Source: an uncultured bacterium
Lineage (GTDB): Bacteria; Patescibacteriota; JAHJAL01
NCBI GenBank assembly: GCA_938004065.1
Contig: CALKWM010000038.1
Location: 66,466 to 130,465 of the forward strand
Direction of reading: 5' to 3'
DNA length: 64,000 nt
The notes under the pieces were generated by a model. That model saw nothing but the letters and a program-made list of their open reading frames with translations. It had not been told where the DNA came from and did not search any database. The number at the start of each line of letters is the position of its first letter. The first letter of the stretch is position 1. Made by a program: the position numbers and the translations under genes. Below, piece by piece: positions 1 through 56,344 of this stretch.

Positions 1-981
1 TTTGTCTAATTTAAAATCAAAAGTGCTTCCGCCTGACGTATCAGAACCGTAAAGTTCCCATAAATCAGTTGAATCTACCCGGTAAGTAGTTCCAGTTTTG
101 TAATTCATGCTCGATGATCCTCGAAGCATTAGCTGATTAGATCCACCAGTATCAACTATATTTAATTTGCTCGCCGGGCTAGTTGTGCCAATACCAACTT
201 TTCCATCATTTTTTAAAGTCAAAGCGTTCTTTTCTCCGGTAATACTATCGTTCCAACAACGCAAATCGCCGGTAGTATCATCCTGATAAAATGCCCAGAG
301 ATTATTTGATCCGGACTGAATATCCATTTCAGCGTTGGTGCCGGTAGCAGTTTTAATATGTAGAGATTTGTTCGGTGCGTTTGTACCGATACCGACTTTG
401 CCGTCGGCTTCAACTTTGAATAATGGATTACTGCCGTTTTGAATGCCTAGTAATGTATCGGTGGCGTTGGAAGATGCCGGATTTAAACACAATAGACCTT
501 GGCAAATACCGGAACCCAATGCAGTACCGGAAAGATTGATAAATCCATCACCATTGACACTGTTGGCATTGATGGCTTGCGGGACACTGGTCAAAACACG
601 TCTGGGAGTCATCTCGGCATCTACACCGATCTGCACTCCCAGATAGTAACTACCGGAGGTAAAATCAAGATCCATAGCGCTATCGCCGGCTTCACCTAAA
701 ATAGTGGTAAATACCCCACCGGAGGTAGTGACAGATTTAGCAGTCGGAGAACCGCAATCACCTCGAGCACTCCATAGACAGTTACCACCGGAAGCCGCAT
801 CATAGATGCGAAATATTACATTGTAACTGCCGTCAGCTACCGGTTGACCGTCCGATGGACGGGTCAGTTTACCCTGGTAGTTGATTTGTTTGTTGACGGA
901 GGCAAATGCGGGACTCAAGGAAGACAAAAATAGTAACCCGATTCCGATCGCCAAACTGATTTTTTTGATTAAATTTTTCAT
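1..981 (-). CDS. 5' part of a further secreted large surface protein (partial, runs off window start)
   Basis: Open frame on the minus strand from ATG at 981 to position 1 (327 codons, no stop). The ORF track omits it because no stop lies inside the window. N-terminus is MKNLIKKISLAIGIGLLFLSSLSPAFA, a classic signal peptide. It contains repeated G(K/N)VGIGT..P..KL motifs reminiscent of tail-fibre/collar repeats. The track ORF 219..413 is in another frame and is spurious. Confidence 0.6.
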   Translation of the reverse strand, partial: MKNLIKKISLAIGIGLLFLSSLSPAFASVNKQINYQGKLTRPSDGQPVADGSYNVIFRIYDAASGGNCLWSARGDCGSPTAKSVTTSGGVFTTILGEAGDSAMDLDFTSGSYYLGVQIGVDAEMTPRRVLTSVPQAINANSVNGDGFINLSGTALGSGICQGLLCLNPASSNATDTLLGIQNGSNPLFKVEADGKVGIGTNAPNKSLHIKTATGTNAEMDIQSGSNNLWAFYQDDTTGDLRCWNDSITGEKNALTLKNDGKVGIGTTSPASKLNIVDTGGSNQLMLRGSSSMNYKTGTTYRVDSTDLWELYGSDTSGGSTFDFKLDK

Positions 982-1076
982 TTTTTATTTTTTATTATTT
1001 TTTGTTTATATTTTAATTTTTGTTTTGTTATCTTATGTTAATTTTTATATTATTTTAAATATTATTTTTTCATATT

Positions 1077-4000: not shown

Positions 4001-7000
4001 TTACCGTGCCATTGCCAAGCGGATAACCGGTCCAGCTGGAGACATCTTCGTCGTCCTGAATGGTGGCGTTGGACAGCGGACTGATGGTCTGATCAATCTC
4101 AAACCAGTTGGTTTGATTCCAGGAACCATAACAGGTGACGGTGTTGCCGGTGGAAGAAGCGGTCACACCATTGCATTGAATATTGAAAGCGGCGATGTTG
4201 TTGGTGTTCATGTAGCTTTGCGAGGTGGAGGCGGCGGTCATGGAGAGATCACCTTCATAGTCCAAAGTGATTGGCCCCAAGCCGGGAGTCGGGTCGGGGT
4301 CGGTGGTAGTCAGAATCGCTTTATATTGAAAATATTGGTTTGGTGTAGAAGTAATAGTCGCGTTGGTGTTGTCTGTCAAATAGCCATCATTGGCCACAAT
4401 ACCAATATCATCAATCCAGAACGTTCGTCCTTGATTACCGTCCAAAAAGCGGAAAGATAATTCATCAATTGCATCGATGTGCGATGGCATGGCGCCAAAA
4501 ATATCAAAAGTCTCTTTCTGCCATTTGAAAACGTCGGCGTTGGCAGTGTAACCGCCACTCGGAAAAGTGCCACCGGCATCCCACAAAAAAACCGTTACTG
4601 CGCCGGTCGATTGATTGACGGTATTGACTGTGCCCTGGGCGATATATTCGGTGCCATCATAATTTTCGCGGACGATAATTTTGTCGCCGATAAATAGATT
4701 ACTGGCTTTTTGTGAAAGACCGCGAGTGGTAGCATCAACTGTAAATGATGTGTCGCCGGATCCGGAAATCAAATTGCCACTGTCCAATGATGCCCCAAAG
4801 TCAATTGTTGCCATATGAGTTCGTTTGCCGATTTCGTAGGCCTGGCGGATTTCTTCGGCAGTGCGGATTGTATTCGAAAGACGTACCTCATCAATCGTTC
4901 CGTTAAAGGCATAACTATATGGAGCTCCACTATAGGAACCGATGTCGAAATTATTGGTACTATTGACGATCGCTCCCTGAGCAACCGGCCCGCCCGATAA
5001 TTGACCATTAACGTAAATGTATATATTACTACCATTTAGAGTACCGGTCAGATGATACCAGGTGTCAAGCTGAGGCTGAAAAGAGGAGCTGGCGCACTGC
5101 CAGTCGCCATCATACACCATAAATCCAAAACGACTGGCGGTACATCCGGTAGATGTATAGTCATATCCGAACCAATACTCCCCTCCTTTACCAACAATTA
5201 AACTGCTAGTTTTATAACTATTAATTTTAACCCAGGCATCCAGTGTTACGCTACTGGGAGACAGACCATCGCTATCAAGTACAGTGACATAATCATCAAT
5301 ACCATCAAAATACCTGGCATTTCCGGTTTTTCCTTGAGTGGTTTTTGTTTCAAATCCCCGGCCTTCGTGATTATAGCCCGAGCTATCGACAGCAATCGGA
5401 TTATCTAGAACAGATATTTCTTGAAAAGTACCGGTATGGCGGTATTGGGCAATTTGCACCCGCAGACTTTCATTTACTTTGGCATTATCCGTTGCCAATA
5501 GTGTCGTCCAGTTGGTGTAAACACCGCCTTTGATTTCATATCTTGCTCCACCATTTGATAACAATGTAATCCTGACTTCATAAGTGGTGTTGGCGACATA
5601 GCCGGAACCATAGGGACCACCAGTTGAAGCACCGTCCTGATAGACATAAAAAGTGCCACCATTAAAATACAGTCCATGAGTCAAAGTGCTATAACTGCCG
5701 GATGAGGTCTGGTTTTGACCCCAGCCGATCATCATGTGATTGGGGGGAGCAACAGAAGTGCTTGTCCTAAATCGAGCGTAGAGCTGTTTACCGGCTTCAC
5801 GGGCAAATGTACCTCGAGATATAACACCCGAATCCCAGGCGGCGACGGTGCCGGCGGATAAAACTATACCATTATTTTGACTGATTTTATTTGCATTGGG
5901 ATCGACTTCCACCCAGTCGATTGTTCTGATGGTGGTACCGGATAAATCATAGGTTAATTTATCCTTGTTATCACCATCCAGATGCCATAAACCGACAGTA
6001 TTGGTGTCCGGCTGACCGTTGGCGTATGGTGATTCGCCGACAGTGGTATTGATGTGCGTGCCGGGTGAATCGGAAGCGATATAATAAGTCAGTTTATTGT
6101 TTGATGATAGATCTACGGGTGAAGCGAGCGAGCGAGTGAGGTAATGTGAGGCGCCGGCGCGGTAGGCCTCGGCGATTTCCTCCGGCGTGCGGGCAACATC
6201 GGAAATGCGAACTTCGTCTATATTGCCAGTATGATATAGATCCGTACCCAACGTATCGTAATGACCAATATAAATTGAGTCAGGATTATTGATATTGGTG
6301 AATTCATTGGCACTGACCGACCCGAACGAACAATTTTCGATGGCCTTTCTTTCTCCGTCGATAAATATCCTGTTGTCTCCATCACCCGTTGCGACCACCA
6401 CATGATGCCAGGCGCCGTCTAAATATTTTTCATGACCCTCACGCACGAACATGCCCAATTGATTGGTTCCACCGCGGCGTAGATAATACGAAATACTCTC
6501 GTCATCACAAAGGGATGTGACACTACCAACATATAAATGAGCAAGATCAGTATTAGCATCTTTATCCGTGATAGAGAAAATAGGACCGGCGGCGGTTGAT
6601 TTAAACCACATTTCGATCGTGCCCTGGTTACGGCCTTCCAACCCGGAAATATGGCTGGAGAGGTTAATATTGTCACTTATTCCATTGAAATATCTCGATT
6701 GACCGGAATATCCCGTGGAGATTGATGTACCGTTAGGCGTGCCGTTATATCCGTTTCCGGAAACGTCTTTGAGGTAATCAGAACTACCTGCCGTTTCCTC
6801 AAAATGCCAAAGACCGACGGTTTCCTCATCTGGTTGTATATAGCCAACGTTAATTTTTGTAGATTTGCCATTTTCTATACCAAACGATTCGTCCGAATTC
6901 AGGCCGTAGGGCATGGCAGAAAGTTGGGCAAAATATATTCTGGAATCTCCACTGGTAGCTCCCCGATACCACATCATATAACCTTGATCAGTTTTGATAA

Positions 7001-10000
7001 CACTTGGATATGAAACCCAGCTTTCATCTCCCGTACCGGATGTTCCCAAAGGGACCCGTCCCTCAGTAGATGAACTATTTGAAGTCAGGGGCGTGGTATT
7101 GTTGAATTTAACCCAGGTCTGACCATCGATGGATGTGGCATAGAAAATCCGATAATGCACTGTTGTGCTGGCACCAGAATACCACATTTTATAAGTTGAT
7201 CCATCCTTGATGACATGGGGGTCAAAAACACTCACACTGTCGCCGGAACTTATTCCCAGGGCAATGCGACCATTGGTACTGACTTGATTTGAGCTGGTTG
7301 GAATTGTGTTATCGGTTTTAGTCCAGTTTAAACCATCCGGTGAAGTGGCTTGAAAAATACGTGCGCTGGAGCCATCACTACCTTGGTACCACATTTTATA
7401 AATTGAACCGTCTTTGATCACATGAGGATTGGTAACCGAAGATGAGTCTCCCCGCCCGCTCGTTCCCAGCGGAATGCGACCGTTGGTTGAAGTGGTATTG
7501 GAGTTTGAAGGAATAGTATTGTCATATTTGGTCCAGGTAAGACCATCGGGAGAAGTGGCGTAGTATATCCTGAGATTACTACCATCACTACCGGCATACC
7601 ACATTTTATAGGTTGAACCGTCTTTGATAACGGAACCTTTGGCAAGTCCGGAAGAATCTCCCCGACCGCTGGTTCCCAGCGGAATGCGACCGTTGGTTGA
7701 AGTGGTGTTGGAACTTGAAGGAATAGTATTGTCATATTTGGTCCAAGTAAGACCATCGGATGAGGTGGCATAGTATATTCTGCCCGTACTACCATCAAGA
7801 CCGTTGTACCACATTTTATAGCTACCGTTCTCATAAATAACCGACGGGCCGGATGTCCCGCTATCATCTCCAGTGGTAAAATTACCAAAAGGTATACGAC
7901 CATCGGTCGAAGAACTGTCTGATCTAGTTGGGATCGAGTTATTTAATTTTACCCATTTCTGATTGATACTATTATTTTGGATGGACCAGTCATAGACAAA
8001 ACTGTTTTCTTCATTTACATCCATATCATCAAGTTGAGTGATAACACCCGCATCCGCTGGCTTCCACTCCTCCCACCCCCCATCTTCCGGTGTATCGTCG
8101 GAACCAGTGCGGGTTTGGAGTTCGATCTTGCCAGCCTGGTAATTGGATAATATTTCATCAGCATCCAGAGCGCGAGCATAAATTTGAGTAGAATCAATCA
8201 CGCCGCCAAAATATTCATACCTTGATCTACTTGTCCGGTTATAGCGACCAATTTCCAGATTGTTGCTTGGATCAATTGTGGTTGTACCTGGTCCATCTTG
8301 TTCATCTATCAAAGAGCCGTCAACAAAAATCCGAACCTTATCGTCATTTCTGTCCAAAACTCCAACCAGATAATGCCAACCGGGAGTAATTTTTCTGGTA
8401 CTAATCGCTTGGTAAACCGGCCCGCCGGCCGTGTCTACGTTGAATACCGGACTACAATCCACGACATCACTAACATAGCCACTAATAAGCAAAGAGTATC
8501 CATTATCAAAATCTCCGGCTGCCTTCGTGGCGATCGGAGAGTTGTAATCATCCGCCCGGCACGCTCGTAAATTTATCCAGGCCGCGACCGAAAATGAATC
8601 GGTGTTTGGATTTAGATTTGAATCGTGAGTAACGGTCACGTAATCGTCAGTTCCATCCATCATTAATGATCCGGTGCCCCATTTGCGGTTATTGGCTGTC
8701 CAGCCTGTTCCGGCGGCGGCATCTTGGCTGCCAGTGGAGCTAAAATTAGTCAAAGTGCCGGTATGGCCATTGCCAGATGCATCACTGGCGGTAGTACCGG
8801 AAGTTTCATTGAAATTCCATTGAGCAACCAGACTTTGATCGTTTTCCAATGTTTCACCGTCACTGGTGCGGACGCCGTATTCTTCCCAGGATAATGAATT
8901 ATAATTTGGATTGTTGATACCTAAATCGATGACATCGGAAGTGTATTCGCCATAGGGGCGAAGTTGAGCGTCGTAATATATTTCTTCAGGTGAAAGGGCG
9001 CGATTACTTATTTTTATCTCATCAATATCACCATCAAATGAGTCCCCGATAATCAATGGATAATCTGTCATTGATGTACCATTGGTCGAAATTGGCATCG
9101 GATTGGTCATTGTGCCAGTCAAAATTCCGTTAATATATGTATTAATGGTTGCCCCATCGAAGGTGGCGGCAATGTGATGCCAGCTTGTCGAATCAATCGT
9201 CCCTTCGGCCATGGCGCCGTTGGAATAACTAACAGCGGAAGCGTTATATTTCATGGTATCAATACCACCATTGGCAAAACCTTCAACTGTGTTGCCGACA
9301 ATACCAAGACCATAGAAATCACCTTTATTTATAATATTGGAACCATATGAAGCGGTCCAGATCTGATCGTCGGTGCCATCGTTTTGTAAATAAAAGAAAT
9401 AAAACTTAGAACCGACAATCTGCATCTGCGGGGAATATTTGGAATACGAATTATCAATTATTTTGGTAGTACTGAATGATTGACTATCTGTGTCCGAACC
9501 GGCAATCCAGATTTGATTGTTACTGCCATCATCCTCCTGCCAGACATAGTTTATTTTATTGCCTGTCACTTGCAGCTGCGGCATCGTTTTATCATAATTG
9601 CTATCTGTTAATTTGGTCGCGCTCCAGCTATTACTAATCAGGTCAACGACACCCGACCATATTTGATAATCACCATCAGTTTCGTACCAGGTGTAATATA
9701 TTTTTGAACCTATTACTTGCTGCTGAGGATAGTATCTTGAAGTATTGCCACTTGTTCTTGATGTGGCACTCCAGTTACTACCATCAGTTTTCATTGTGGC
9801 GGTCCATATTTGATAAAATAATCCTGATCTTTCTGTCCAGACAAAATATATGTTATCTCCGACGACCTGCAGTTGCGGATATTCTTTATTGTAGTTAGAA
9901 GTTGTTCTCTGAATAGCACTCCAGCCTGTTCCGTCAGTATTCATGGTAGCGGTCCAGATCTGGTTATAGCTACCGGTATATTCACGCCAGACAAAATAAA

Positions 10001-11621
10001 TTTTTGTTCCCACTACCTGAAATTGAACATTTCCTTTTCTGGAATTATTACTTGTTCTCTGAGTCATGCTCCAACCGCTGCCATCAGTATTTGAAGTTGC
10101 CGTCCAGATCTGATCCTGCAGATTATAAAACTCGCTCCAGGCATAATAGATTTTATCACCTACCACTTGCAGTTGTGGATTGTATTTACTCTGGGGCGTG
10201 GTAGTTGTTCTTTTTATTGAATCCCATTCGCTACCGTCACTATTGGATGACGCTGTCCATATCTGGTACCAACTGTCGTTGTGTTCCATCCAGGTGTAGT
10301 AAATTTTGTTGCCTGCCACCTGAAACTGCGGCTCATATCTCTCATCGGTATTGGTAGTTCTTTGTATTGTCGAGATAGTATTGCCATCCCCCTTTATCCA
10401 GGCTTCTGCTGTCATTTCGTTGGTAAGTTTTAGACTGAGATCATCAGTAATGGACACATAATCGTCTTCAGCAAAGGAAAGAGCGCTATCGCCCAGTTTT
10501 TGACTGGTCGTGTTCCAGGTTGGATCCTGACTGTCTGATCCGCTGGTTGAACCTAGTTGACCGTCATTATTATTGATTGAACTATCATTCACCGTCTGCC
10601 CGCTTGACTCATCAAAATGCCACAAACCAACTGTATTAATATCAGCCGGCAACTCATGATATTTTAATTCAACGCGTGGATCGCTGGTGGTCTGCAGGCG
10701 GTTTTCTTCACCGGCTTGAAACTCCCCCTGCGTGTTATGCACAATCGTCGGATCGATAATGACCGGATATTGCAAATCGGGATCAGAGAGCCAGTTTTTG
10801 TCGATGGTGATGGTGATGACATATCGTAAGGGCGAACCCTCGAGGTCGCCCTGGGCAGGCGCAAGGCCGGCCCGTACAACGGGCAGAATTTCCATCGAAA
10901 TATTTTTTGTTTCATTGCCATTGGAATCATGGGCGATTAATGGCAAGAAATGGGCAATGTAATTGTTTTGCTCGTCGGTAAAATAGTAGGTGCCGACCGG
11001 TAAATCGATCGAACTACCGGGAGCAACTTTATGCAAAATCATCCCTTCGTCGAGATTCAATTCATACAGATAACTATCATATACCGCGCCTTTACTACCA
11101 TTGACGATGATATTTTCTTTGAGACCGGTTTTTTCCAATGGAGATATTTCGACATCGATATCATCGATTACATTTTTGATAATTAATTTATCATTTTTTT
11201 GTGAGTATGATCGGTTGTTGACTACAGCCGATGGATCGATTTCACCTGAATTTATAACTGACTCAACATTGGTTGAATCCATAACATTTACCAGCGCAAA
11301 CTCGATGTCGTATTGTTTTTGACCAAAAATAGCATTGAAAATTTTACCGGTGAGATTGTGTTTCTGGTCGGCAATTGTGGAAAATTTTACTACCTGATCT
11401 TGGCCGGTTGTTTTGTCCCCAATTTCAATATCGATATTTTCTCCGCTATAGCTAAAGTTAGGTTTTTCAAAAAACAGAGTCTGTCTGAAGTTTCCATTTC
11501 CGGCCAGGGTGGCTTTGAGAAGCAGACTGCAAACAACTACCAAAAACATTGAAACGGTCAGGTATTTCAACAATTCCAAAATATGAATTTCTTGTTCTTT
11601 CTTGTATGGTTGATAACCCAT
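1077..11621 (-). CDS. giant secreted LamG/beta-propeller surface protein (3514 aa), paralog of 19768..30987; lacks the family C-terminal module
   Basis: Uninterrupted 10.5-kb ORF with TAA stop. N-terminal hydrophobic segment LTVSMFLVVVCSLLLKATLA. N-domain ends in YPVIIDPTIVHNTQGEF. Several LamG/Laminin_G_3-like jelly-roll signatures (AWIK..WHH.A.T.DG....Y.NG; IDE[VI][RK]IS.RALS.EEI). A 7-bladed Asp-box propeller of ~48-aa blades (PQLQVVGDKIYY.W.E....QIWTA..NTDGSGWS). Five ~70-aa blades (VIKDGSTYKMWY.G.DGS..RIYYATS.DGLTWTK). Ig-like Cys-containing modules. A C-terminal 2.x copies of a ~480-aa supra-repeat; the protein stops inside the third copy (...SYIWSTPDSP*). Confidence 0.9.
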   Translation of the reverse strand: MGYQPYKKEQEIHILELLKYLTVSMFLVVVCSLLLKATLAGNGNFRQTLFFEKPNFSYSGENIDIEIGDKTTGQDQVVKFSTIADQKHNLTGKIFNAIFGQKQYDIEFALVNVMDSTNVESVINSGEIDPSAVVNNRSYSQKNDKLIIKNVIDDIDVEISPLEKTGLKENIIVNGSKGAVYDSYLYELNLDEGMILHKVAPGSSIDLPVGTYYFTDEQNNYIAHFLPLIAHDSNGNETKNISMEILPVVRAGLAPAQGDLEGSPLRYVITITIDKNWLSDPDLQYPVIIDPTIVHNTQGEFQAGEENRLQTTSDPRVELKYHELPADINTVGLWHFDESSGQTVNDSSINNNDGQLGSTSGSDSQDPTWNTTSQKLGDSALSFAEDDYVSITDDLSLKLTNEMTAEAWIKGDGNTISTIQRTTNTDERYEPQFQVAGNKIYYTWMEHNDSWYQIWTASSNSDGSEWDSIKRTTTTPQSKYNPQLQVVGDKIYYAWSEFYNLQDQIWTATSNTDGSGWSMTQRTSNNSRKGNVQFQVVGTKIYFVWREYTGSYNQIWTATMNTDGTGWSAIQRTTSNYNKEYPQLQVVGDNIYFVWTERSGLFYQIWTATMKTDGSNWSATSRTSGNTSRYYPQQQVIGSKIYYTWYETDGDYQIWSGVVDLISNSWSATKLTDSNYDKTMPQLQVTGNKINYVWQEDDGSNNQIWIAGSDTDSQSFSTTKIIDNSYSKYSPQMQIVGSKFYFFYLQNDGTDDQIWTASYGSNIINKGDFYGLGIVGNTVEGFANGGIDTMKYNASAVSYSNGAMAEGTIDSTSWHHIAATFDGATINTYINGILTGTMTNPMPISTNGTSMTDYPLIIGDSFDGDIDEIKISNRALSPEEIYYDAQLRPYGEYTSDVIDLGINNPNYNSLSWEEYGVRTSDGETLENDQSLVAQWNFNETSGTTASDASGNGHTGTLTNFSSTGSQDAAAGTGWTANNRKWGTGSLMMDGTDDYVTVTHDSNLNPNTDSFSVAAWINLRACRADDYNSPIATKAAGDFDNGYSLLISGYVSDVVDCSPVFNVDTAGGPVYQAISTRKITPGWHYLVGVLDRNDDKVRIFVDGSLIDEQDGPGTTTIDPSNNLEIGRYNRTSRSRYEYFGGVIDSTQIYARALDADEILSNYQAGKIELQTRTGSDDTPEDGGWEEWKPADAGVITQLDDMDVNEENSFVYDWSIQNNSINQKWVKLNNSIPTRSDSSSTDGRIPFGNFTTGDDSGTSGPSVIYENGSYKMWYNGLDGSTGRIYYATSSDGLTWTKYDNTIPSSSNTTSTNGRIPLGTSGRGDSSGLAKGSVIKDGSTYKMWYAGSDGSNLRIYYATSPDGLTWTKYDNTIPSNSNTTSTNGRIPLGTSGRGDSSSVTNPHVIKDGSIYKMWYQGSDGSSARIFQATSPDGLNWTKTDNTIPTSSNQVSTNGRIALGISSGDSVSVFDPHVIKDGSTYKMWYSGASTTVHYRIFYATSIDGQTWVKFNNTTPLTSNSSSTEGRVPLGTSGTGDESWVSYPSVIKTDQGYMMWYRGATSGDSRIYFAQLSAMPYGLNSDESFGIENGKSTKINVGYIQPDEETVGLWHFEETAGSSDYLKDVSGNGYNGTPNGTSISTGYSGQSRYFNGISDNINLSSHISGLEGRNQGTIEMWFKSTAAGPIFSITDKDANTDLAHLYVGSVTSLCDDESISYYLRRGGTNQLGMFVREGHEKYLDGAWHHVVVATGDGDNRIFIDGERKAIENCSFGSVSANEFTNINNPDSIYIGHYDTLGTDLYHTGNIDEVRISDVARTPEEIAEAYRAGASHYLTRSLASPVDLSSNNKLTYYIASDSPGTHINTTVGESPYANGQPDTNTVGLWHLDGDNKDKLTYDLSGTTIRTIDWVEVDPNANKISQNNGIVLSAGTVAAWDSGVISRGTFAREAGKQLYARFRTSTSVAPPNHMMIGWGQNQTSSGSYSTLTHGLYFNGGTFYVYQDGASTGGPYGSGYVANTTYEVRITLLSNGGARYEIKGGVYTNWTTLLATDNAKVNESLRVQIAQYRHTGTFQEISVLDNPIAVDSSGYNHEGRGFETKTTQGKTGNARYFDGIDDYVTVLDSDGLSPSSVTLDAWVKINSYKTSSLIVGKGGEYWFGYDYTSTGCTASRFGFMVYDGDWQCASSSFQPQLDTWYHLTGTLNGSNIYIYVNGQLSGGPVAQGAIVNSTNNFDIGSYSGAPYSYAFNGTIDEVRLSNTIRTAEEIRQAYEIGKRTHMATIDFGASLDSGNLISGSGDTSFTVDATTRGLSQKASNLFIGDKIIVRENYDGTEYIAQGTVNTVNQSTGAVTVFLWDAGGTFPSGGYTANADVFKWQKETFDIFGAMPSHIDAIDELSFRFLDGNQGRTFWIDDIGIVANDGYLTDNTNATITSTPNQYFQYKAILTTTDPDPTPGLGPITLDYEGDLSMTAASTSQSYMNTNNIAAFNIQCNGVTASSTGNTVTCYGSWNQTNWFEIDQTISPLSNATIQDDEDVSSWTGYPLGNGTVTLYARAGESGDYTDTFSFNIEKDVSRPAVTSITSVAGDTSVPYSDGTDNSSTFVVYTASADATSCKWDESDLTYGAMANTCISTTNCTLDLSGEGQKDVYFRCLDIAGNYSDSSYHLTYYIDIDPDIVLLDAGPSSSDRTSLTSDTWFNYSQTGSDDQISFVWTDPSSPSDDYFYYLENDSSVNAISNTNLVGWWNFEDDTITTALDHSGQENHATLYGTSTTSGNLGLARSFNGTSDYLHDNALASSIPGNLTVTGWIKASTIPVYQERIIDLAQAGDAGLQVCIDTSGNILLENSGGPSGVVYGGNATDNNWHHFAVTRSGTTYEFFVDGISKGTTSGSAPTYSQMYFGRRQTGGDFYAGQIDDTKIFTRALSSTEILNEYQIRLTQNNYLDSQTATEGTFYKHIRPINGVDSWGTEYQFIEKYDKTAPTLSASGNSEQWYSINPSITLTTIDNHSGLNYSKYSWDSNDSTCRSSGTNFNNSDSINIPSNGTHVLYLCNQDNVNNQNSWSGIYKLDNTTPDLASIDAGQSSADRTSLTSDQWFGYTDTGSDDQISFSWTDPASPSDDYFYYLENDSSVAAFNESDLAAWWNFENDNTATAWDHSVNNNEGTFNGSTISTGQLGNGRYFDGSDDEIQITDHNTLKPATNLTVSAWFKTEDKSIASQQIISKTRHSGYSLSLSNTQLCFAVSDGYNSYKYACISNAAINNDTWYHVAGTYDGSNVKLYLDGQFQTQTVMTTNIYYMDSVLCIGAEAGTLGNICENYYFKGDIDEAKIYTRTLTDTEINNEYLRRLTTNPYLDNQLVTEGIYYKHIRPFTGADNWGTERQFIEKYDKTNPLVSADNSSDRWYGSNPTITLSTTDTSSGINYSKYSWDSDDSTCRSSGTLFNNLDTINIISNGFHRLYLCNEDNTGGMGSWSGVYKLNTIVPDILAIDSGPSASDRTSFTTAEWFNFFDTGSDDRGSYIWSTPDSP
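7440..7900 (-). repeat. near-identical ~220-bp intragenic tandem repeats (propeller blades 2-3 of 1077..11621)
   Basis: For example, 7478..7560 and 7698..7780 differ at only a few positions (cccagcggaatgcgaccgttggttgaagtggt.ttggag.ttgaaggaatagtattgtcatatttggtcca.gtaagaccatcgg). They encode IPS.SNTTSTNGRIPLGTSGRGDSS... Confidence 0.7.
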
Positions 11622-11659
11622 ATATGATAAAAGAATAATATGATTTGAGAAATCTTATT

Positions 11660-11688
11660 ATTGTAGCATATTTATCTTTTTTTTGCAA
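11660..11688 (-). promoter_or_regulatory. sigma70-like promoter of 1077..11621 (-35 TTGCAA, 17-bp spacer, extended -10 TGcTACAAT)
   Basis: Minus-strand sequence CCCATAAAAACCTTGCAA-AAAAAAGATAAATATGC-TACAAT-AATAAGATTT lies 40-70 bp upstream of the ATG. It is near-identical to the module upstream of 32390..50551. Confidence 0.6.
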
Positions 11689-11848
11689 GGTTTTTATGGG
11701 AAAAAACATTTTTTACATTTATGTCATGAAATGGCTTATTGGGTGGGGGTTTTGGGGTGAGTTCAAAAAACCCTGAAATAGTTTTTCAGAGTTTTTTGCT
11801 ATGTAAACAAAATGAACAACGATTGGAGAGAAAAATGTAAAGTACCAA

Positions 11849-11901
11849 GATCCTGAATCGCTCGAGTATTCGCTTCGCTCATCTCGGGTTCAGGATGACA
11901 A
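11849..11901 (+). repeat. palindromic intergenic element, copy A (GATCCTGAA-N36-TTCAGGATGACAA)
   Basis: 8-bp outer stem ATCCTGAA/TTCAGGAT, an inner CTCGAG..CTCGGG stem (one G-U pair) and a conserved 3' GATGACAA tail. Lies between the 11950..19683 stop and the 1077..11621 promoter. Confidence 0.6.
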
Positions 11902-11949
11902 TAGTCTGTGATTTACTTGGAGATTGGATATTGGTACTTGGAAATTAAC

Positions 11950-12430
11950 TTAGTAACTCGATGTCGCAATATAGATAATCTCGGTCGCGTAGAAACCGGT
12001 AGTGGTAAATGTAGGTGAGAGATTCAATCGATAACCGATTCTGGTTTGTTCTAGGCCCGGTCCGGTGGAACCGGCAACGGGGTAATAATCGGTAGAGAAA
12101 CCGGCCCATTTGTTGCCACCGCCGGAAGTAAATCGATCGGGGTCACCACCTTCCGGAATAGTTGAGTCGGTGGTGGTGTAACCAAAATATCCATTGGAGC
12201 TAGGTACCAGCCAGGTGGTGGGAGAGGTGTTGGTACCGGTGAAATCATTGATATCGGTCGGACCGGAAAGCTTGCCGGTATAGCGAACTACGAGTAGGTA
12301 ACCATTATCCGAATTGGTGTCAACCGTGATATCGTGGGCGGCGATTTTGTTGTCTCCACCGGAGATATTGCCAAAAGGTAGAGTGTTGGGTGAGGTGGTG
12401 GCAAAATTGGTGGCGGAACCATTTACATTG
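11950..12430 (-). other. conserved C-terminal module (WxL-like?) of the giant-protein family; homologous modules at 19768..20250 and 32390..32840
   Basis: Last ~150 aa of 11950..19683, 19768..30987 and 32390..50551. The three align at L.FG.L.V....V.....GY.V, at DFTGTN..P..W..P...G.FGY.T.DST, and at the terminal G.Y..T.[IVL].[YI]V....Y*. Confidence 0.55.
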
Positions 12431-15400
12431 GCTCCACTGGGGACAGCGGCGCGAGACATGTCAAATGTGATAAAGGTAGGAATATTGGCCATAATTTCAA
12501 GACCTTCATTGATATAGACTTTGGCGTCGCGCAGTTCACTCGTGTCGCCGGTACCGTCGGCGGTCGAGTAAATGCCGATATCGACATTGTATGGGCCGAC
12601 TACCGGTGGATTGGTGATTTGATTGGTACCACCCAGTTCAAAGCGCAGTGTGCCGTCGGTGCTATCGAGCTGGCCGGTGAATGGAAATACGACCGAGTTG
12701 TTGACGGTATCGACAATCTCACTGTTTGACCAAGTAATATTGCCACCGGTGGCTTGCACATCGGCGGCGGTTATACCACTAAAATCAAATTCCGGTGCGA
12801 ATACAATTTTTACCGATCCATCGATAGTTGAAGAGGTTATAACGTTGGTGTAGAGTATGTTGCTGGCGCCGGAGGCGTGGCTAGGACGAGGGTCGGACAG
12901 GATCACTTCCAGGGCGGCTTCGGCTTCGGTAATATAGAAAAATCGTGACGTGTCGGAGGTGATTATGGTATCGGCTGCATCATGAACCTCCACTTTGACA
13001 TGAGCGTAGAGTGAAGCGGCTTTGGGAACGATCCATTCATAACTACCATAGATAACCGAACCGCCGGAATGGGAAACGTCACTGGCAATCAACGTCCAAA
13101 TATTACCGGCATCCAAACTGTAGTAAATATCAGCAGTATCGGCGTTACCGCCGTCATTGTAAGTCGTCCATTCGATATCGTGAGTACTGCCCGGTACCCA
13201 GGTTTCACCACCATTGGGCGAAGTGATATTAACGCCATGATTGTCGTAGAGGATGTTACCGGGGTTTTTATACATTTTCCCGGGTGAATAGTCAGATACC
13301 GGATAAGCGCCCCAGGTGTTCTGGTAAGCATCGACGGTGGTACCGCCGGCCGGAGTTTGGAACGGGGAAGAAGTATTGCGAACATAGTAACTGCCGGCAT
13401 CGACATAATTTCCGCGCATTTGTACTCCACTGGCGATATTGCGGCCCAGAACGCCGGTGGTAACGGTATCGATATAGTTGTTATTTAACTCCAAATAGTC
13501 GCTGGCGGAATAGACATAGACCCCGGTGTTAAAATTTTTGATAGTGTTGTAGTCAAAGATCGTACCGGCCACCGGATTGTTGAATACAACCCCATAGTCG
13601 CTGGCGGAATCAAAGGTGTTGTGATGAATACTGGCCCGGGAATTACCAACATATAAACCAAAATTCGTGTAGTTAAAATTATTGTAAGCAATTTCAATCT
13701 CATTGGCAGTCGCGTCTTCCAGCGCCAGTGTGTTGTTTTCTTCGAACAGAAAACTGTCGCCCGGATTACCACCCCCGTAGCGAAAATTGGTATATTTGAC
13801 TGCTCCCGACGGACTGTTCCCGCCACTACCAAGAAAGTGAACCGATTGCCAATCACTTTTGGCCGGCGTGGTGGCATTGCCATCATTGTTAGTGTCACCG
13901 CCAATGGAATCGTCTAAAATTGATGTGAAAGTGATGTTTTCATCGGCGGTACCAGAAGCGTTTAGAGTACCATATACTATCAATTCTGAATTATTAGCAT
14001 TATCCATCTTGATCACCGCGCCCGGCTCGACATTTAACACCGCTCCGTTGGGTACGTTACAATCATATGTATCAATATCTATATAGTAAGGAAATTCTTT
14101 TTGCAAAGTGCGGGTGCCGTCAAAACTGGTGCCCCAGAAATCACACTTGATCTGAATGCCGCTAACGCCACTGTTGGTAACGCTGTTGTCGCCGGTAAAA
14201 GTAATGTTGGTTTCATTATTTGGGTGGGCCAAGTAGATCGCCGCGTTGGTTGTATTGGCAATATTAATGTTAGTCGCGGTCACGTCGGCATTTTCCAGCC
14301 GGATGCCGTAGTAGTTGGAATTCATGATGGTGATATCGGACAATGTCGGCTCAGTGCGGCTGTTAGTGTTATGTCCCTGAATGTCAATCGGGGCGTAGAT
14401 TGATCCTCCTCCTCCGGTGGCGGCGGCGCCGCCATAGTGAAATTCGACGTGGTTGAGACTGCCGGTGGCCACGCCCTGATCAGCCAGAAACCAGATGCCT
14501 CCCCAGTCGCCGGCGGCGGGAGTGGTGGCCGAACCGTCACCATTGGTGTCGCCGCCATGCTCATCGTCATATTGAGAAGTAAAAATTATTGGTTCGTTGG
14601 CGGTGCCGTTGGCCACGATGGTACCATAATTGTAAATAATCCTGTCATAACTAGCATTGAGGCCGGTTTTTATCACTGTGCCCGGTTCGATTGTCCACGT
14701 TACACCATTGTTGACATAAACAGAACCAGCAGTCGAAAAAATATAAGGAAAATCACTTTCCCAGGTAGTATTTCGATTAAAATTCTGGGTATGGCCATAT
14801 CCGATTCCCAGATATACTTCTATGCCATTTATGCCATTATCGGTGGCGGTATTGGTACCGGAAAAACGCACCGCGCTGGCGCTGCCTGGACCGTCCATAA
14901 ATATGGCGGCGCCGACGTTGTCAACGGCGGTAAAATTATTAACTGGCACGTCGGCATGGTAGATATCCAAACCATGACTGGCCGAGTGCTCAAAAGTAAC
15001 ATTATTAAATTCAGGCTCATCCTGACCGCGATCATTATGTTCGCGAACCCTTACTATTCCTTCATAGCCGGTCACGCCACCATATCGAAAAATGGTATGG
15101 TCCATCGTGCCGGTAGCCACGCCATTTGTGCTGACGAAAGATAAATATGGCCAATCGCCGGCTGCTGGTAAAGTCGCCGATCCGTCATTATTGGTATCAC
15201 CGCCAACCGAATCATCTCTGATAGACGTAAAATAAACAGGTTGATCCGAAGTACCATTGGAATTAAGGGTGCCATATATTTCCATCAAATTAGCCGCACC
15301 GATAGCAAATTTTAAAACCGCACCTTTTTCGATCGTGACTTCAGAGCCATTGTTGACTGTGGGGTGATATGAACCTATACCAACCATATAATAAGGAAGG

Positions 15401-18400
15401 TCGTTATAGAAAGTACGGGAGGATAATGTATTACCGCCGAATACATAATTAGCCTGGACTCCATTGATACCATTATTGTCAACTGTGTTTTGTCCTAGAA
15501 ACTCGACTCCAGTATTATCAGCAGAACTTGTTAAGTAGATAGCCGCACTGCCGTTATTGTTAAAATTGGCGTTGCTTATGATCGGATTCGCGCGATACAG
15601 ATATATCCCCTGATCCTGGCTGTATTCAAAAATACAGTTATTAAAAGTCGGTTCCACTTCTCCATAGTTATTGTGATCAATAATATAAACATTGCCATAA
15701 ATGTCTCCACCACCATAACGGAAAGTAGTATAGTCGATCGTTCCAGTGGCTTCTCCGGACTGAGCCTCAAAAGATAATTGATACCAGTCGCCTTTGGCCG
15801 GTAGAGTGGCCGAACCATTGTTGTTAGTGTCACAGGGCTTGTGTTCGATACAATTACCTTCGCTGTCAAACCATTCCGGATGAGTGGAAAAGCCGACTGT
15901 ATCATCTTTGAGAGAGGTAAAATAAACTCGATTTTCCGCTGTCCCCTGACTCAACAGATTGCCATCAATTTGCATTTTGCTATTTGAAGCAAATTTAATA
16001 ATCGTACCTTCTTCTAGGGTTAAATTGACAGAGTCACCCACGAACGGGTAGCTGGCACCTTCGATGATATATGGATAATCATTGGTAAAAGTGGTATCGT
16101 CCCACATTGTTCGAACGTAGTAATTGGGAGTGATACGAATGCCATTGGTGCCACAGTTTTCGATCACGTTTGAACCATCAAGAAGAATATTGGTACGATA
16201 TGGGCCATAGAACTGGATGGCGTCACCGCCCATGTTTTTTATGGTTACATTGGTAGCATTAACGAATACCCGGTCCAAGTACATTCCATCACCACTACCA
16301 TTGATAATTGTTACATGATCAAAGTTTGGATTTTGCTTGTTGTAACTTTCGTGATCATAAAAACGTACAGCATAATTGGCGCTGTATCTGATTTCAGCAT
16401 TATAAATATTGCCCATGCCTTGATAGCTGGCGTTACTACCGCTGAAAAATATAGCGCCATCATAGTTTCCCCATACACCGGGAGTTGGTTGGGTAGTAAA
16501 CCCATCTCGACCGGTGTCGCCGTCGGGAGTTGAGTCGTCATAGATGTGAGTAAAAATCACCGGTCTAGCGTCGGCACCGGTCGGATCGCCAACATTGAGG
16601 GTGCCTTGTACAATTAAACCTTCGCCATTGTTGGCGGTTTCGATGTGTTTTACAATAGTGCCGGGTTGAATAGTGAGGGTATTTCCGGCGGGAACCGTTG
16701 GTTGATTGTCGATACAAACCACGGCTACATCGCCATAATCATCATCCGGTGGCCAGGTGCCGGATACACTTCCGCCCACATAAGTATAATCACACCCCGG
16801 ATCATTACCGCCGGCCGGTCCACAGACGGTACTGCCAGTATCGGAAGCGACATCGGTGGCGCCACCGGGCAATGAACTGGGATCGGTGCAGCGGTCGGAA
16901 TAAGCCATATTCAAGCCGTTTTCGTCAGTCCAGGTGTAGTAACCATCACAGGTATCGTCAATCACCAGATCGGGATTAAATTTATTGGAATAGGAAGCGG
17001 CCCGGGTGCGGACGATTTCATTGTCTAGATTATTGAACATCTTGGACGTCTTGAGATAACCATTAGCTCCCATCATAAACCCCGTTGATGTATGAGCGGA
17101 AATCGGGTCACGGGGGTTCCAGATTGTAAATAAATCATTATCAAATAACTGCCACTCAGCATCGTTTCGATATTCATTATGACCGGCAAACCGGTCGATA
17201 TATTGTCCTTTGCTGTAAGACAAATCAAGATTATAACGAGCGAACCAAACTTGATCTTCGGTTGGTATCTCGGGAACAGGCGTAGTCAAGACATTTCGTG
17301 CTCCGTTGCGGATATCGCTCATGTATATGTAGCTGTTGTCTGCATAAATCTCCAAATCGGTGGCGTTGATAAAAGCACTACAGTTGGGAGTATGTTCACA
17401 TAATTCCGCCGAGTAGGTTTCAATCCGAGATTGAGAATAATTTGATCCACTTGTTTGGACCTTCCCCAGATAAATATCCGGTCCCGGGGGATAATTGGTG
17501 TTACCATTAAAATCGATAGTAGAGGGCATCACACTTTTGTTTTTGAAAATTGTATATATCCAACCATTATCAATATAAAAATTGTGTTCCATGTTGACGT
17601 AATTTGTTGCAATAAATGTTTGTTGAGCACTAGAAACTGCAGACCAGTTATTGTTGCCTAAGTCAGTCGTAGCCCAGTACAAAACATCATTTCTTGTCCC
17701 GCCAACCCAGATATGATAAACCTTGCTTTCTGATGGTATCACTTGCACATAACTGGCTTCGCCAACACCAGCGCCGGTGAGTGAACGAACATAATTTGTG
17801 AAAACCCGATTGGTAGAGGACAAAGTGGCTGTGGAAATATCATATACGGCGGTGACGTGGTTTTGGGTTTGACCCTGCCGCCAGGAAAGATAAATTTTAT
17901 TGTTATAATAATCCGATCGTAGCATTTGTACATCATTGCTGGTGGTTTGCTGGGTGTTTATAAAAGTACCTTCCGGATCCGAAATATCGGCACTGCCGAT
18001 CCAGACATTGCCGCTGGTGTAATTATTGGTTGCCGAATTATGTACAAAATAAAGCTTGTCGCCGATTTTGAACATATTGGACAAAAGGCCGGCGTAAGAG
18101 CTGGAAAGATTGTACGGTTCCCACGTACCGGCCGAATCCGCCGTACCGGAAAAACCATCAGCATAGCTGTAACTAACTGTGTATTCGGTGTTACCTTCCA
18201 AACCGCCTACTGTGAGTGGCGGCGACCAGTCGGAATAGGTTTGGTAATATGGATCTTCGCCGAGTGTTAGATCGGGCTGGACATAAGCGACAGCATTATC
18301 TTTTGTATTAATAAATTTCAAAGCATAGGTGGTTTGCAAGGGGTCTTGATCTTCTTCCGAGAAATCAATTGTTAGATTGGTACAATCTGAACTGGTGATG

Positions 18401-19683
18401 TTCAGAAAGGGTGGGGTTTCTTCGATAGGTAGTCCTCCGGGTTCTTCCGTATTAGGAACTGCATCACCCATTAGCAGATTGGTACAAAAAGTGTGTTGCG
18501 TGGTGCTACCATACCATTTGCTCATGCCAATACGACTTCCTGTGGGAATGTTATAAGGTGGCAGGGTATTGTAGTCAGTACAAGTTACACCTATTGCTCC
18601 GAAACGCTCCTCTCCGATAACACCAAAAAATTCATCATTAGTTGATTGAGTTTTCACGCTAAATGTACCGCATCCGATATTGACATATGAATAATAACCC
18701 GAGGAATTGGTGCTGGCAGTATGTGTAAATGATCCGCTTCCGGAACAACCAGAAGCACTAATTATGACATCTGCGTCCTCAATAGGTTGGCCAGTATTGT
18801 GATCATAAATATATCCCGCTAATCTAATTAGTCCGTATGACACTCCGGCCGTTGGATCGAAAACCACCGGATAATCGGCCTGGGATAGAAATTTTTCATC
18901 AAGCTGATAGATGATTTGTCTGTCATTGTTAATTAGTTCGTATTTAACTTGAGAGAAGTTACCTTTGCGATCTACGAGGGTGGCGGGAGATATTTTCCAG
19001 GAGATGTTTTCCACATTTTGGTTGAAGATAATATCAATACTACCATCCGGCTGAGGTGAAAGTTCACTGTCGCTTGGATAATCTAATTGAAATGCCAAAT
19101 TCGAGAAATCCGGTTTACGGTCAAATATAATCGATTCTTTAATGCGATCATCGTCCAAACGGTACTGTACGGTTATGCTATTGTCAGTTTCGTATAATAC
19201 ATAATCATTTTGAGAAAAGATATCATGAATCTTGTAGTCCGGTTGAATCAAAGACATGGTCAGGAAATTTTGGGGATCGTTTTTCATGGTTAATGAGGTG
19301 GTGATATGGTCCTCTAAGAGATAACTTTCAGTAATAAAATGATCGTTCTCAGCTTTTTGAACGGTGGTATCGGCAAATAAATTCCAAATACTTTTTTCTC
19401 GAGAAGATTTGACAAAAGGATGATTATTTTTCAAATCCTGACTTTGGCTTTTAATTTTGTTTACAGATGTAACAGCGTCAATCAGTTCATCTAACAATAC
19501 ATCTGATGTTGCATTTAAAGTTAGATCACTTTCAGAATTGACACGGTCATCATTAACAATCAGTATATTAGTTTCTCTGGTGTTTATTTTGAAGATGATT
19601 ACAATTATTGATAGTAATACCAGTATCGCCACCGGCCACACTTGTTTGATCATATCCAATCTATTTTTGTTTTGGTTGTTCAT
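11950..19683 (-). CDS. giant secreted beta-helix-rich surface protein (2577 aa) with WxL-like C-terminal module
   Basis: 7.7-kb ORF. N-terminal signal anchor [18 protein letters not shown] CarboxypepD_reg-like segment ([21 protein letters not shown]...[13 protein letters not shown]). The N-domain motif is [10 protein letters not shown]. At least 5 tandem right-handed beta-helix modules, each carrying P[VI].FTS..DDS.GGDTN.DG.AT.PA.GDW ... F.YGG. An Asp-box module ([10 protein letters not shown]...[10 protein letters not shown]). A C-terminal ~330 aa homologous to the C-terminus of 19768..30987, ending [17 protein letters not shown]. Confidence 0.9.
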
Positions 19684-19767: not shown

Positions 19768-22700
19768 TTAATACTTGGCGGTACAAACATAAAGAACAGT
19801 GTGAGAATAGCTGCCGGATGGTTGTCCGGAAGTTACTTGCAGTCGATAGGTCATGGTGGTGGTATCGTTCATGACGAGATTGTTGGAGTACGCAATTTCT
19901 GATGGAGTCGTGGTAATGGCGGCCCAACGGTCGGCGCTAGCAAAACGGCTGGTGGTGCCGGTGCCAAGCGTTGAGTCAGAAGTGTGATAACCATAAAAGC
20001 CGGTTCCGGAAGGAGAGGTCCAAGCCAGTGGAGCGGAGTTGGTACCGGTGAAGTCGGGCACACTGCCGGCAGTTCCGGACAAATCATGTTCTTCGCGCAT
20101 GGTAACCGTATAGCCATGATAGGCATTGGTACTGACTTTGAGGATATGGCTTTGGTTGTAAACAGTATTAACTTCGAGATCACCAAAATCAAGCTGAGTT
20201 ATGTCGGTAGAATCAGTGATGTCACGGATGGAAAATTCCAGTGCCGATTCGACATTGATATTGAAGGCCAGACCGCTGTTGATCAGAACATTGGTGGCCA
20301 AGCGATGAGTGGGGAAACCACCACCGGCTTGCCCGTCATGAAGAGTCAGAATTATCCGATATGAACCCTCGCTTGAGGGGTTGTTGATGAGATTGTTGTT
20401 GTTACCAATAGTTAAAGTAATTAGGCCGTCGGTGTGATCTAGTGTACCGGTGAACGGGAAAACTATGGAGGAGGTGTCGATGATTTCCGAGCCGGACCAA
20501 CCAACATCACCGCCGGAGGCAACCACATCGGAAGCAGAAATAGAAAGGTCAAATTCCGGTGGAAAAGTAACCTTGATGCTGTCGTCAATGTATTGACCGG
20601 CGTATTGATCGATAACAAATTTGATGGTGTGTTTGGCATCGGCATCGGGAGTGTAATCGGTGAGTGTGTCTTCGATGACGGTAATAGTAAAATTACGGTC
20701 GGAAATATCTTCGATCAGTGTGTTGCCACCGGAATCTTTCATGGAGATTTTTAGGCGGGCTTCGGTGGTACTGACGGCAGGAATTGTCCAAGTGTAGGAT
20801 CCCGTTGAGCCGGTGCATCCCGGGCCGGCACCTGAGCCGTCGCACTTGATATTGGCGACGATGGTTTGATCAAATTCCGAGCCGGAATCAGTGGAGAGCA
20901 AAATATCCAGATGATTGCCGTTGGTAGTGCCGTTATTGAATGTCCAATTGATGGTGCGGGAAGAAGCGGCAAAATATGATTCTCCCCCATTGGGTGAACT
21001 TATTACTGAACTGTTGGTGTCAAATAGTATCTCGCCACCAGCGGTACGGTCAAATTTACAGTTGCCGGCCGAGCTATCAAAGTAGCACATATAACCGGCC
21101 AGGTTTTCGAAAGCATTCTGTCTGGCATCAACGGTATTTTCAGCATTAGCGTCACGAATCGTTGTCCCTGATGGATTGTCAATATAAAAGCCGGTATTAG
21201 TATTATCAATATCATTGTGACGCAGGGTCAGACCAGGGCCGGTGTTGTTGTCGGTGTCGGGCAGGCCGTCAATGTAAACCGCGGCAATGGTGGTATTGGA
21301 GAACGAATTATATTGGATCGGATTGGTGATAATTGAACCGTTGGCTTCTACATAGATACCATACGGACTGTCGCCGAGATTATTTCTCTGAATGTCCGGA
21401 CTGGCATCATAGACAAAGATATCGGCGTTCGCGGAATTGTTAAACACATTATTGTAGGCGGCAATATTGACACCTTTAGTATTGAGCTGACCGCGGAAAA
21501 TAGTGCCATCGAGGATAATCGTTTCGCCACCATAATTGAAATTACAGAATTTGAATGAACCGGCGGCGTCGGGAGAAATTACATATACACCATTCCAGTC
21601 GCCGGCGGCGGGCGCGCCATCACTGCCTTCAACAGTTAAGCCAATAGTGTCATCATCCATGGAGGTAAAATAAATCGGATTGCCGCTTTCACCTTCGGCC
21701 ACAACAGTCGAACCATCGGTAACAATATAAGCGCTGTGGGCAAACTTGACCACCGTTCCCGGCTCGATCAATAAAGTGCTACCCGGAATGATAGTGGTAG
21801 GACCGGACACATAGATGGTTGATCCACTGGTCCAGGTGCCGCTGCCGATTTCACCGGCCACTTCTTCGTATGACGGTCGATAGTAACCGGCTTGCGGTTC
21901 TGGCTCGCTGGCTTTGCGGTGTTCATAAAGTCCGAGAACTTGTGAAGCGTTAAGTTTGGTCGTATACAGTTTCACTTCATCCATATAACCTTCATAAAAA
22001 TTACCACAGGTTTCAGTGCCTATGAAGGTCATCTGTGTAGTTCTTAAATACATCAAAGCATTGAGGGCGCTGCGGTCGACAAACTGACCGTTTTTATAAA
22101 AGTTAACATAAACGCCGTCATAGACTACAGCAACATGTGTCCAGATATTGGGTTCGATCGTGGCGGTGGAAGTGTAGGAGGCCGACCCATAGGCGCCATT
22201 ACTGGTCTGGAAGTATAATTTGTTACTGTCATTGATATAGAAATGCCAGTTGGGATTGCTGCCGCAAGCGGCGTCACGCTGGGCCATAATTGGCATCCAT
22301 TGGTTACTCACCGTCGGTTTGATCCAGGCGGACACTACCAGATGATTGCCGGCCTGGTACATCGATGAACCGTTACCGACATTAATGTAGTCGTCTGTAC
22401 CATCGAAATACAGATGATCACCGGTCGAGAATTCAAGATCGGGGCGACTGTCCCATTGGGCACCTTCATCCGCCTGCCAGGCCGGCGCGCCGTTGAATAC
22501 GCCATTATTACCATACCCGCTGTCATCACAAGCATCATCACCATCACTGCAGGTGTTGTCCGCCCCTTCGTCAAAATGCCAGGAGCCGGCCAGACCGTCA
22601 AAACCGGAATTTTTAGTAAAAGTATTATCAAAATTTTCGTAGGCACCGGCGGCCGGATTGCCATAGTACATATAGATAGTCTTGTTGTTGTTAGCTGGTA

Positions 22701-53525: not shown

Positions 53526-53779
53526 TTAGAATGTATATTAATAATATTATTTATACATTACTATTGTATATTATTTGATACTACTTGGCAAGAGTAGTCT
53601 TAGACTACAAGTTTTTTATACCAGACATGATCACCATAGTAACGAGATTGATTCAAATCATTCCCTGTGTAATTTTGGTTTCGGGTCGCTTTGCCCGTCA
53701 TCGATTGGCCAGTGTTCATAGGTTTCGAGCTGGTGAGGTGGTTGGTTTTCCAATGATGGGGGCATGGAATTTGAAAAAT

Positions 53780-54829: not shown

Positions 54830-54965
54830 TTTTTTATTGTTTCATGATATTATTCTAATTGTATCATTTTGTAACAATTAGTAAATACCCCTGAAGTAAA
54901 AAGATTAGGAGCAATCCATCTTAATTTCTGTCAATTTTACTACAGATAGGAGAAAAGTTAAAGGG

Positions 54966-55086
54966 AAAGGGAAAAAGAATAAAGAAAGCTTAAAGACCCC
55001 CGCCCAAGGCGGGTCTCCTCCAAAGGCGGACAAGCGCCTCGGGCGGAAAAGATTAAGATTTTGATACTCTCACCGCGGAACGGGAA
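54966..55086. repeat. 115-bp direct repeat, copy 1 (identical to 57732..57846); GC-rich hairpin plus T-rich tail in minus-strand orientation
   Basis: 54972..55086 is base-for-base identical to 57732..57846, with 5 more flanking bases at 1 mismatch. Contains GACCCCCGCCcaaGGCGGGTC and AGGCGGacaaGCGCCtcgGGCGG hairpins. Overlaps the last 11 codons and stop of 55053..55775. Confidence 0.85.
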
Positions 55087-56270: not shown

Positions 56271-56344
56271 AGGTAGTTATTATTAGCTTTTGAGTAATAC
56301 CAGAGGATGAATATAACTATATTAAGAAATCACAAAAGAGCAAC

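Follow-up and report, generated by a model that had tools for sequence, protein, structure and literature searches.

CPR bacteria are host-attached, carry many giant surface proteins, and have no sortase-type anchors. How such proteins are held at the cell surface is the question raised by the locus described here, a window of 64,000 nt from an uncultured patescibacterium that is part of GCA_036848155.1 (contig DAIUKQ010000001.1, 326 kb). The list of open reading frames contains five co-directional genes, E, D, C, B, and A, on the minus strand (Table 1). Inspection of the translations revealed hydrophobic N-terminal signal or anchor sequences on all of A, B, C, and E, and the combination of many Laminin_G_3 and DUF2341 domains with a beta-helix region in these four proteins fits surface adhesins. 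Gene D lies between those of E and C, only 13 bp from the start of C. A reading of this DNA from its letters alone (the sequence-only reading) had noticed a shared C-terminal module on B, C, and E and proposed that it is a divergent WxL domain, with Tyr in place of Trp, that attaches these proteins to peptidoglycan. The evidence presented below points to a different identity for the module, that of a pilin domain.

Table 1. Positions of the genes and protein domains discussed in the text; unprefixed positions are those of the window
Feature	Position	Strand	Description
Giant A	1077..11621	-	3514 aa; LamG-rich like the others; without the C-terminal module; internal negative control (Pfam, CTD and NTD HMMs)
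Giant B	11950..19683	-	2577 aa; N-terminal signal/anchor sequence, beta-helix region, Ig domains, C-terminal pilin module
B, last 180 aa	11950..12492	-	putative donor linker beta-strand (conserved) and Pam-type CTD; ends ...IYIATSSY-stop
B, pilin-type NTD beta-sandwich	12493..12912	-	directly before linker and CTD; NTD HMM match at residues 2258-2397, E = 1e-19
B, Kre9_KNH-like Ig domain	12931..13233	-	directly upstream of pilin module
Giant C	19768..30987	-	3739 aa; cleavable-looking signal peptide, at least 6 Laminin_G_3 lectin-like domains, DUF2341, C-terminal pilin module
C, last 164 aa	19768..20262	-	linker strand and Pam-type CTD; ends ...LYVCTAKY-stop; CTD HMM E = 2e-45
C, pilin-type NTD beta-sandwich	20263..20676	-	
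C, Kre9_KNH-like Ig domain	~20700..21000	-	directly upstream of pilin module
Protein D	31001..32230	-	409 aa; class-I methyltransferase domain, no signal peptide, cytoplasmic-looking
Giant E	32390..50551	-	6053 aa; signal peptide, ~10 Laminin_G_3, six DUF2341, C-terminal CTD
E, last ~139 aa	32390..32809	-	divergent CTD of the 'VVPxF/Y' subtype; ends ...SIVVIPRY-stop
E, Kre9_KNH-like Ig domain	~33200..33400	-	just upstream of pilin module
LamG protein with CTD, 1474 aa	L093:23547-27971		left of the window; CTD E = 2e-49
Pilin, 383 aa	L094:13924-15075		~3 kb past the right window end; CTD E = 1e-40
WxLIP-like membrane protein, 329 aa	L094:15095-16084		family HMM E = 1.4e-58; PF06030 E = 2.6e-4

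The peptides on which the module had been proposed, and the three C-termini, were all found in the translations. In BLASTP comparisons, the last 450 aa of B and C were collinear at 33% identity (E = 4e-56); the ~330-aa collinearity noticed earlier is therefore real and even longer, since B and C also have in common an upstream Kre9_KNH-like Ig domain. The upstream Ig domain of E is common to B and C as well (pairwise BLASTP E = 2e-8 and 6e-9), with Pfam PF10342 matches of these domains remaining sub-threshold (~0.007). Because this Ig domain is shared by B, C, and E, the conserved C-terminal cassette exceeds the pilin module. The last 200 aa of B were also recovered by an independent family profile constructed without any window sequence (profile A4; hhalign probability 99.8%, E = 7e-28). 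Giant E proved to be related over ~140 aa and much more weakly. Its last 72 aa matched C in BLASTP (E = 0.002), only its last 58 aa aligned with A4 (hhalign E = 2e-4), and a homologue search with its last 210 aa returned no match. The placement of E came only from a profile of the giant-enriched 'VVPxF' subtype, which aligned over 128 columns (hhalign probability 82.8%, E = 9.4e-6) and gave E = 7.5e-8 in hmmsearch, against 0.13 for the C-terminus of A as the control. Giant A had no CTD or NTD HMM match. Chance or compositional similarity is ruled out by the E-values together with A as the internal control. The module is carried by B, C, and E and not by A, as the sequence-only reading had stated.

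A remnant of the CTD was sought downstream of A and none was found; that region begins a different secreted protein. This 687-aa protein, encoded on the minus strand directly downstream of A (1..981, running past the window start; L093:20641-22704), ends in a Peptidase_S74 (endosialidase chaperone) domain and is phage-tail-fibre-like. A 'tail fibre-like protein' has been described as a conserved neighbour of pam operons (bioRxiv 10.64898/2026.03.03.709456).

The proposed WxL identity was examined at the level of profiles and motifs. No match to PF13731 at E ≤ 10 was found for the three window C-termini or for 14 family members, nor was there a Peptidase_M73/TasA Pfam match that would have connected the module to TasA and camelysin. 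Compared with profiles of 11 to 13 genuine WxL domains, the module reached hhalign probabilities of 0.5 to 3.6%, versus 98.9% for the control alignment of small with large WxL profiles, and all WxL HMM-versus-sequence scores were below 11 bits. Neither of the two Trp-x-Leu motifs is conserved, the family consensus reading GY.VTV and Y.TTL.YI..P.F. The sole local match between the WxL and CTD profiles, GW.L.V.Q..F against GY.VTV, is the one that had been guessed from the sequence, and the order of the motifs is loosely similar. Retention of the giants on the cell wall through non-covalent binding of a divergent WxL domain to peptidoglycan would also suit the placement of the module, which, like WxL, is C-terminal on large adhesins and occurs alone in small proteins (PMC10599100), and its partner, a WxLIP homologue (see below), bears a domain that Pfam names 'peptidoglycan binding.' Against this stand the profile results and also two WxL papers, in which peptidoglycan binding rests on in-silico docking (PMC9772566, PMC10599100) and the AF2 prediction has a strand of WxLIP inserting into the WxL beta-sandwich and completing it (PMC10599100). 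We consider a peptidoglycan-binding WxL domain quite unlikely; none of the present results supports peptidoglycan binding by a WxL-like fold, and strand complementation has the better support. A search of a literature library found no paper joining 'WxL' with 'donor strand.'

The profile that did match belongs to the Pam pilins, described in Candidatus Mycosynbacter amalyticus as PamA, PamB, PamE, and PamT (bioRxiv 10.64898/2026.03.03.709456). According to that preprint, the Pam pilin is built from an NTD sandwich, a donor linker strand, and an acceptor CTD, with the NTD supplying much of the inter-subunit interface; the system further comprises membrane-anchored chaperones, a membrane anchor (PamR), and the CTD-only PamT, proposed as the tip pilin. 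It does not mention WxL, DUF916, or giant proteins. The NCBIfam model NF058581 (CPR_Pam_pilin_C; profile length 148, curated cutoff 55 bits) matched C (E = 3e-10, 40.4 bits) and B (E = 0.049, 13.7 bits) over profile positions 4-148 of 148, and E over positions 88-148 (E = 0.019, 15.1 bits). It also matched 13/14 family members, with a best E-value of 3.6e-13 and a top score of 49.8 bits, and every alignment ended at the last residue of both the profile and the protein. The curated 55-bit cutoff was reached by none of B, C, and E nor by the best family member, and such significant yet sub-cutoff matches indicate a sister or divergent branch of the Pam CTD. Some relatives additionally carry a PamT-like N-terminus (NF058579 PamT, E = 2e-10). 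Pfam yielded no significant match for the module in the window C-termini or the 14 family members. On these profile alignments, the C-termini of B, C, and E are assigned, as divergent relatives, to the Pam pilin CTD superfamily of CPR bacteria. The module had been thought previously unrecognised; the 2026 preprint and the NCBIfam models already exist.

The closest relatives of the module of B and C are stand-alone secreted proteins of 355 to 391 aa that are collinear with it over the whole 320 aa; three ~360-aa stand-alone pilins (P0002, P0003, and P0007), for example, follow the NTD, linker, and CTD of B. From this collinearity, B and C end in a complete pilin (NTD, linker, and CTD). The AF2 models and the adjacency of the HMM matches show in both proteins the architecture given in the Pam preprint, namely an NTD sandwich, a single linker strand, and a truncated Ig-like CTD. 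In E, the NTD HMM detected no pilin-type NTD, and the giant thus has only the CTD, like PamT.

The fold was predicted with AF2 for the last 320 aa of C, which formed two beta domains (pLDDT 92.7, pTM 0.66), and for the last 180 aa of B (pLDDT 92.7, pTM 0.88). The solved folds closest to the CTD model were donor-strand filament subunits: TLP-1b, CsuA/B, FimA, PapA, and TasA. For the two-domain model, the matches were all of a generic kind (adhesins with two Ig domains and folds with a single one), and sequence searches of the PDB with the B module, the C module, and the family profile returned nothing relevant. The predicted CTD structure has the fold class of donor-strand pilins.

To describe the family at large, a linker-plus-CTD profile was used, which matched 3269 cluster representatives at E ≤ 1e-3, with 345 remaining at E ≤ 1e-30. 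Their lengths are either ~350 to 400 aa or those of giants, which reach 6399 aa, and in all of them the match sits at the C-terminus. The part of the earlier proposal that holds is the general one: giants secreted by a cell that lacks an outer membrane carry at their extreme C-terminus a conserved attachment module, and this module occurs also on small stand-alone proteins. Among the best 147 of the 3269 representatives, 50 are at least 1000 aa long and the rest include the ~350-aa stand-alone forms. The terminal residue, earlier described as an invariant Tyr, is Phe or Tyr and mostly Phe in these 147 (81 F, 62 Y, 4 other); in the genome loci, 79 of the 85 ORFs end in F, 5 in Y, and 1 in H, with the match reaching the very last residue in 85/85. 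The pilin NTD is kept, by HMM, in only 9/54 giants, which makes linker plus CTD the portable unit; the profile matches of the giants begin at positions 2-7 and so include the conserved linker strand. Two subtypes can be told apart by their ends. The '...[AC]T[PSAG]x[FY]' subtype (190 sequences) consists mostly of stand-alone pilins and includes B and C; the '...VVPx[FY]' subtype (41 sequences, 26 of them at least 1000 aa long) includes E. The last strand of many family CTDs contains just one Cys (YVCTAKY, YICTPTF).

The genome loci come from Patescibacteria MAGs in 79/80 cases (Paceibacteria, Kaiserbacteria, Nomurabacteria, and Parcubacteria), with one oddly labelled contig, and the named family matches belong to Kaiserbacteria and Paceibacterota. 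The family thus shares the restriction to CPR/Patescibacteria that characterizes Pam pilins. The exceptional pilin locus (L039, JBLHGD010000024.1) is labelled Candidatus Azotimanducaceae, not a CPR lineage, and is probably a mis-binned contig.

The neighbourhood of the stand-alone pilins supplied a second line of evidence. At least 53/75 pilin loci have, within ~100 bp downstream, a gene for a protein of ~355 aa that has a signal peptide and, at its C-terminus, a TM segment, the latter being present in 63/64 of the pilin-adjacent proteins. This agrees with the Pam operons, which contain membrane-anchored two-domain chaperones. Pfam PF06030 WxLIP_PGBD (DUF916) matched 48/62 of the pilin neighbours, some above the gathering score, and the neighbour profile matched the PDB entry of EfmWxLIP1 (E = 4.5e-6). 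In hhalign, it aligned with Firmicute WxLIPs, represented by eight WxLIPs from plasmids, over 252 columns covering both Ig domains (probability 98.9%, E = 1.1e-17). These profile comparisons identify the pilin neighbour as a WxLIP homologue; no NCBIfam Pam chaperone model matched the WxLIP-like neighbours. In WxL clusters, a WxLIP is encoded together with a small WxL protein and a large one that ends in a WxL domain (PMC10599100), and the same elements recur here as small and large domain proteins and a DUF916 neighbour with a C-terminal TM helix. The link to WxL suggested by the sequence-only reading thus stands at the level of the system, through this neighbour, and fails at the level of the domain, for which there is no profile match.

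A pilin-WxLIP pair is present in the same genome as the giants (Table 1), outside the window at ~67007..69167 in extrapolated window coordinates, with a gene for an 873-aa Ig/CarboxypepD_reg-like protein downstream. The giants lie 16 to 55 kb from the pair on the opposite strand, so that they do not form one operon with it; the pair is likely the assembly core for the giants. A further CTD-bearing LamG protein lies to the left of the window. Its N-terminus resembles P0004-type relatives (SxNY...GE motif), which match the N-terminal region of PamT. A more compact arrangement was seen in another genome (L003, GCA_964547855.1), where positions 1..14483 hold, in co-directional order, a 5713-aa giant, a 1536-aa CTD giant, a pilin, and three paralogous WxLIP-like genes; beyond them lie two FGE-sulfatase genes and cohesin- and dockerin-bearing proteins.

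We put at roughly 65% the probability that the modules of B, C, and E are pilin-type donor-strand acceptors that attach the giants to a Pam-like fibre, to a WxLIP-type anchor, or to both. This reading builds on the homology to the Pam CTD family, the pairing of pilin and WxLIP, the presence of such a pair in the same genome, the strictly C-terminal position of the module, its fold class, and the N-terminal signal sequences of all three giants. The last ~140 to 180 residues of the three giants would form, after one conserved beta-strand, a pilin domain with an incomplete Ig-like fold, and after Sec export the open groove of the CTD would be filled by a beta-strand of another protein (donor-strand complementation). 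The first donor may be the membrane-anchored, two-Ig-domain WxLIP-like protein encoded beside the stand-alone pilin, serving as chaperone and anchor, and the next donor the linker strand of a pilin. In this way, a thin Pam-like fibre would take up the LamG-rich giants as subunits, in the simplest case as adhesins at its distal end or tip; alternatively, the giants may remain held on the WxLIP-like anchor. In chaperone-usher pilins, the chaperone reads the free carboxylate of the last beta-strand. The strict C-terminal position of the module and its terminal Phe or Tyr would fit such a last strand, with a free carboxylate read by the chaperone. Strand exchange itself, the order of the subunits, and the tip position are the steps that we infer. 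The giants keep the linker strand, so their architecture does not dictate a pure tip role. The sub-cutoff scores, the lack of a Pam chaperone model match among the WxLIP-like neighbours, the distance of the giants from the pilin-WxLIP pair, and the doubtful steric fit of subunits of 2500 to 6000 aa into a thin fibre also count against the proposal.

The combination of a linker strand with an acceptor CTD on each giant also fits a scheme in which the giants polymerise mutually, as head-to-tail chains or a mesh with no pilin shaft, or sit singly and permanently on the WxLIP-like anchor. Such a scheme agrees with the whole pilin module carried by B and C and with the presence of four CTD-bearing large proteins within ~95 kb versus a single pilin gene. 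However, the rarity of the NTD among the giants argues against it, given the share of the NTD in the inter-subunit interface of Pam pili, as does the position of the WxLIP-like gene next to the stand-alone pilin form; we regard it as unlikely. The strict C-terminal position, the beta-sandwich fold, and the occurrence on many unrelated large surface proteins would in addition suit a signal for sorting or secretion that, like the T9SS C-terminal domain, is recognised in the course of export and taken off. That function is very improbable, as abundant stand-alone proteins of ~350 aa, which are homologous to pilins of proven structure, have this domain as their body and no sorting-signal model matched in the NCBIfam scans. 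Neither T9SS-type machinery nor an outer membrane is expected in Patescibacteria.

Comparison with known systems places the donor-strand reading most closely beside the Pam pilins. The shared features are CPR restriction, a signal peptide, end-anchored HMM matches, and membrane-anchored two-domain chaperone-like neighbours, together with the NTD sandwich, conserved linker strand, and incomplete Ig-like CTD in B, C, and the stand-alone relatives. In contrast to the Pam pilins, the module scores below the curated cutoff, occurs in a Paceibacteria-type lineage and not in Saccharimonadia or Microgenomatia, is fused to LamG/DUF2341 adhesins of 2500 to 6000 aa that are absent from the preprint, and has as its partner a WxLIP (DUF916) homologue, a link that the preprint does not make. 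This kind of system has been known since 2026; what is new is that the module is fused to giants and that its partner is linked to WxLIP. The WxL clusters of Lactobacillales and Listeria (DUF916, DUF3324, and TM; PMC1534035, PMC9772566, PMC10599100; PDB 9i25) have in common with it the triad of small, large, and partner proteins, a homologous partner (signal peptide, two Ig domains, and C-terminal TM), and the predicted mode of binding, a strand completing an open beta-sandwich. They differ in that the CTD shows neither WxL motifs nor detectable sequence similarity to the WxL domain, an additional NTD is present in the stand-alone form, and no LPXTG mini-protein is found in the cluster; moreover, WxL proteins are not known to have been proposed to form fibres. 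Chaperone-usher pilins and two-domain tip adhesins (FimH, PapG, CsuE, and CfaE) are more distant: there is no outer-membrane usher here, the chaperone is membrane-tethered, the donor strand is a linker whereas the classical one is N-terminal, and sequence similarity is lacking. TasA, archaeal bundling pili (AbpA), and TLP-1 fibres differ in domain composition and partner proteins.

Should the giants indeed bear the acceptor domain of a pilin, they become candidates for the host-binding tips or for subunits of Pam pili, and the 3269 cluster representatives, with giants making up about a third of the best matches, become a candidate adhesin set. The WxLIP homology also provides a testable link between the CPR pilus and the WxL surface display of enterococci, listeriae, and lactobacilli. 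More tentatively, and with the odds in our estimate somewhat against it, Pam-like pili and WxL clusters might both be branches of a single ancient donor-strand system that works with chaperones and no usher in cells lacking an outer membrane. Under such a scenario, a membrane-tethered WxLIP-type chaperone would load both small shaft subunits and very large adhesins with C-terminal acceptors, which would account for the display of CPR giants and would recast WxL 'peptidoglycan anchoring' as assembly by strand complementation.

Two further features of the window lie beyond the genes for the giants. Between an enolase and a sugar isomerase gene, positions 52272..57478 encode a Fic-domain protein between two AAA_14/DUF4143 ATPases and include a low-GC patch (0.325 at 52-54 kb), and this stretch may be a mobile or defence islet. 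On the plus strand, 60229..61482 encodes a protein of 417 aa whose N-terminal domain is glutaredoxin/thioredoxin-like and whose C-terminal part is hydrophobic; it may be an extracytoplasmic thiol-disulfide protein.
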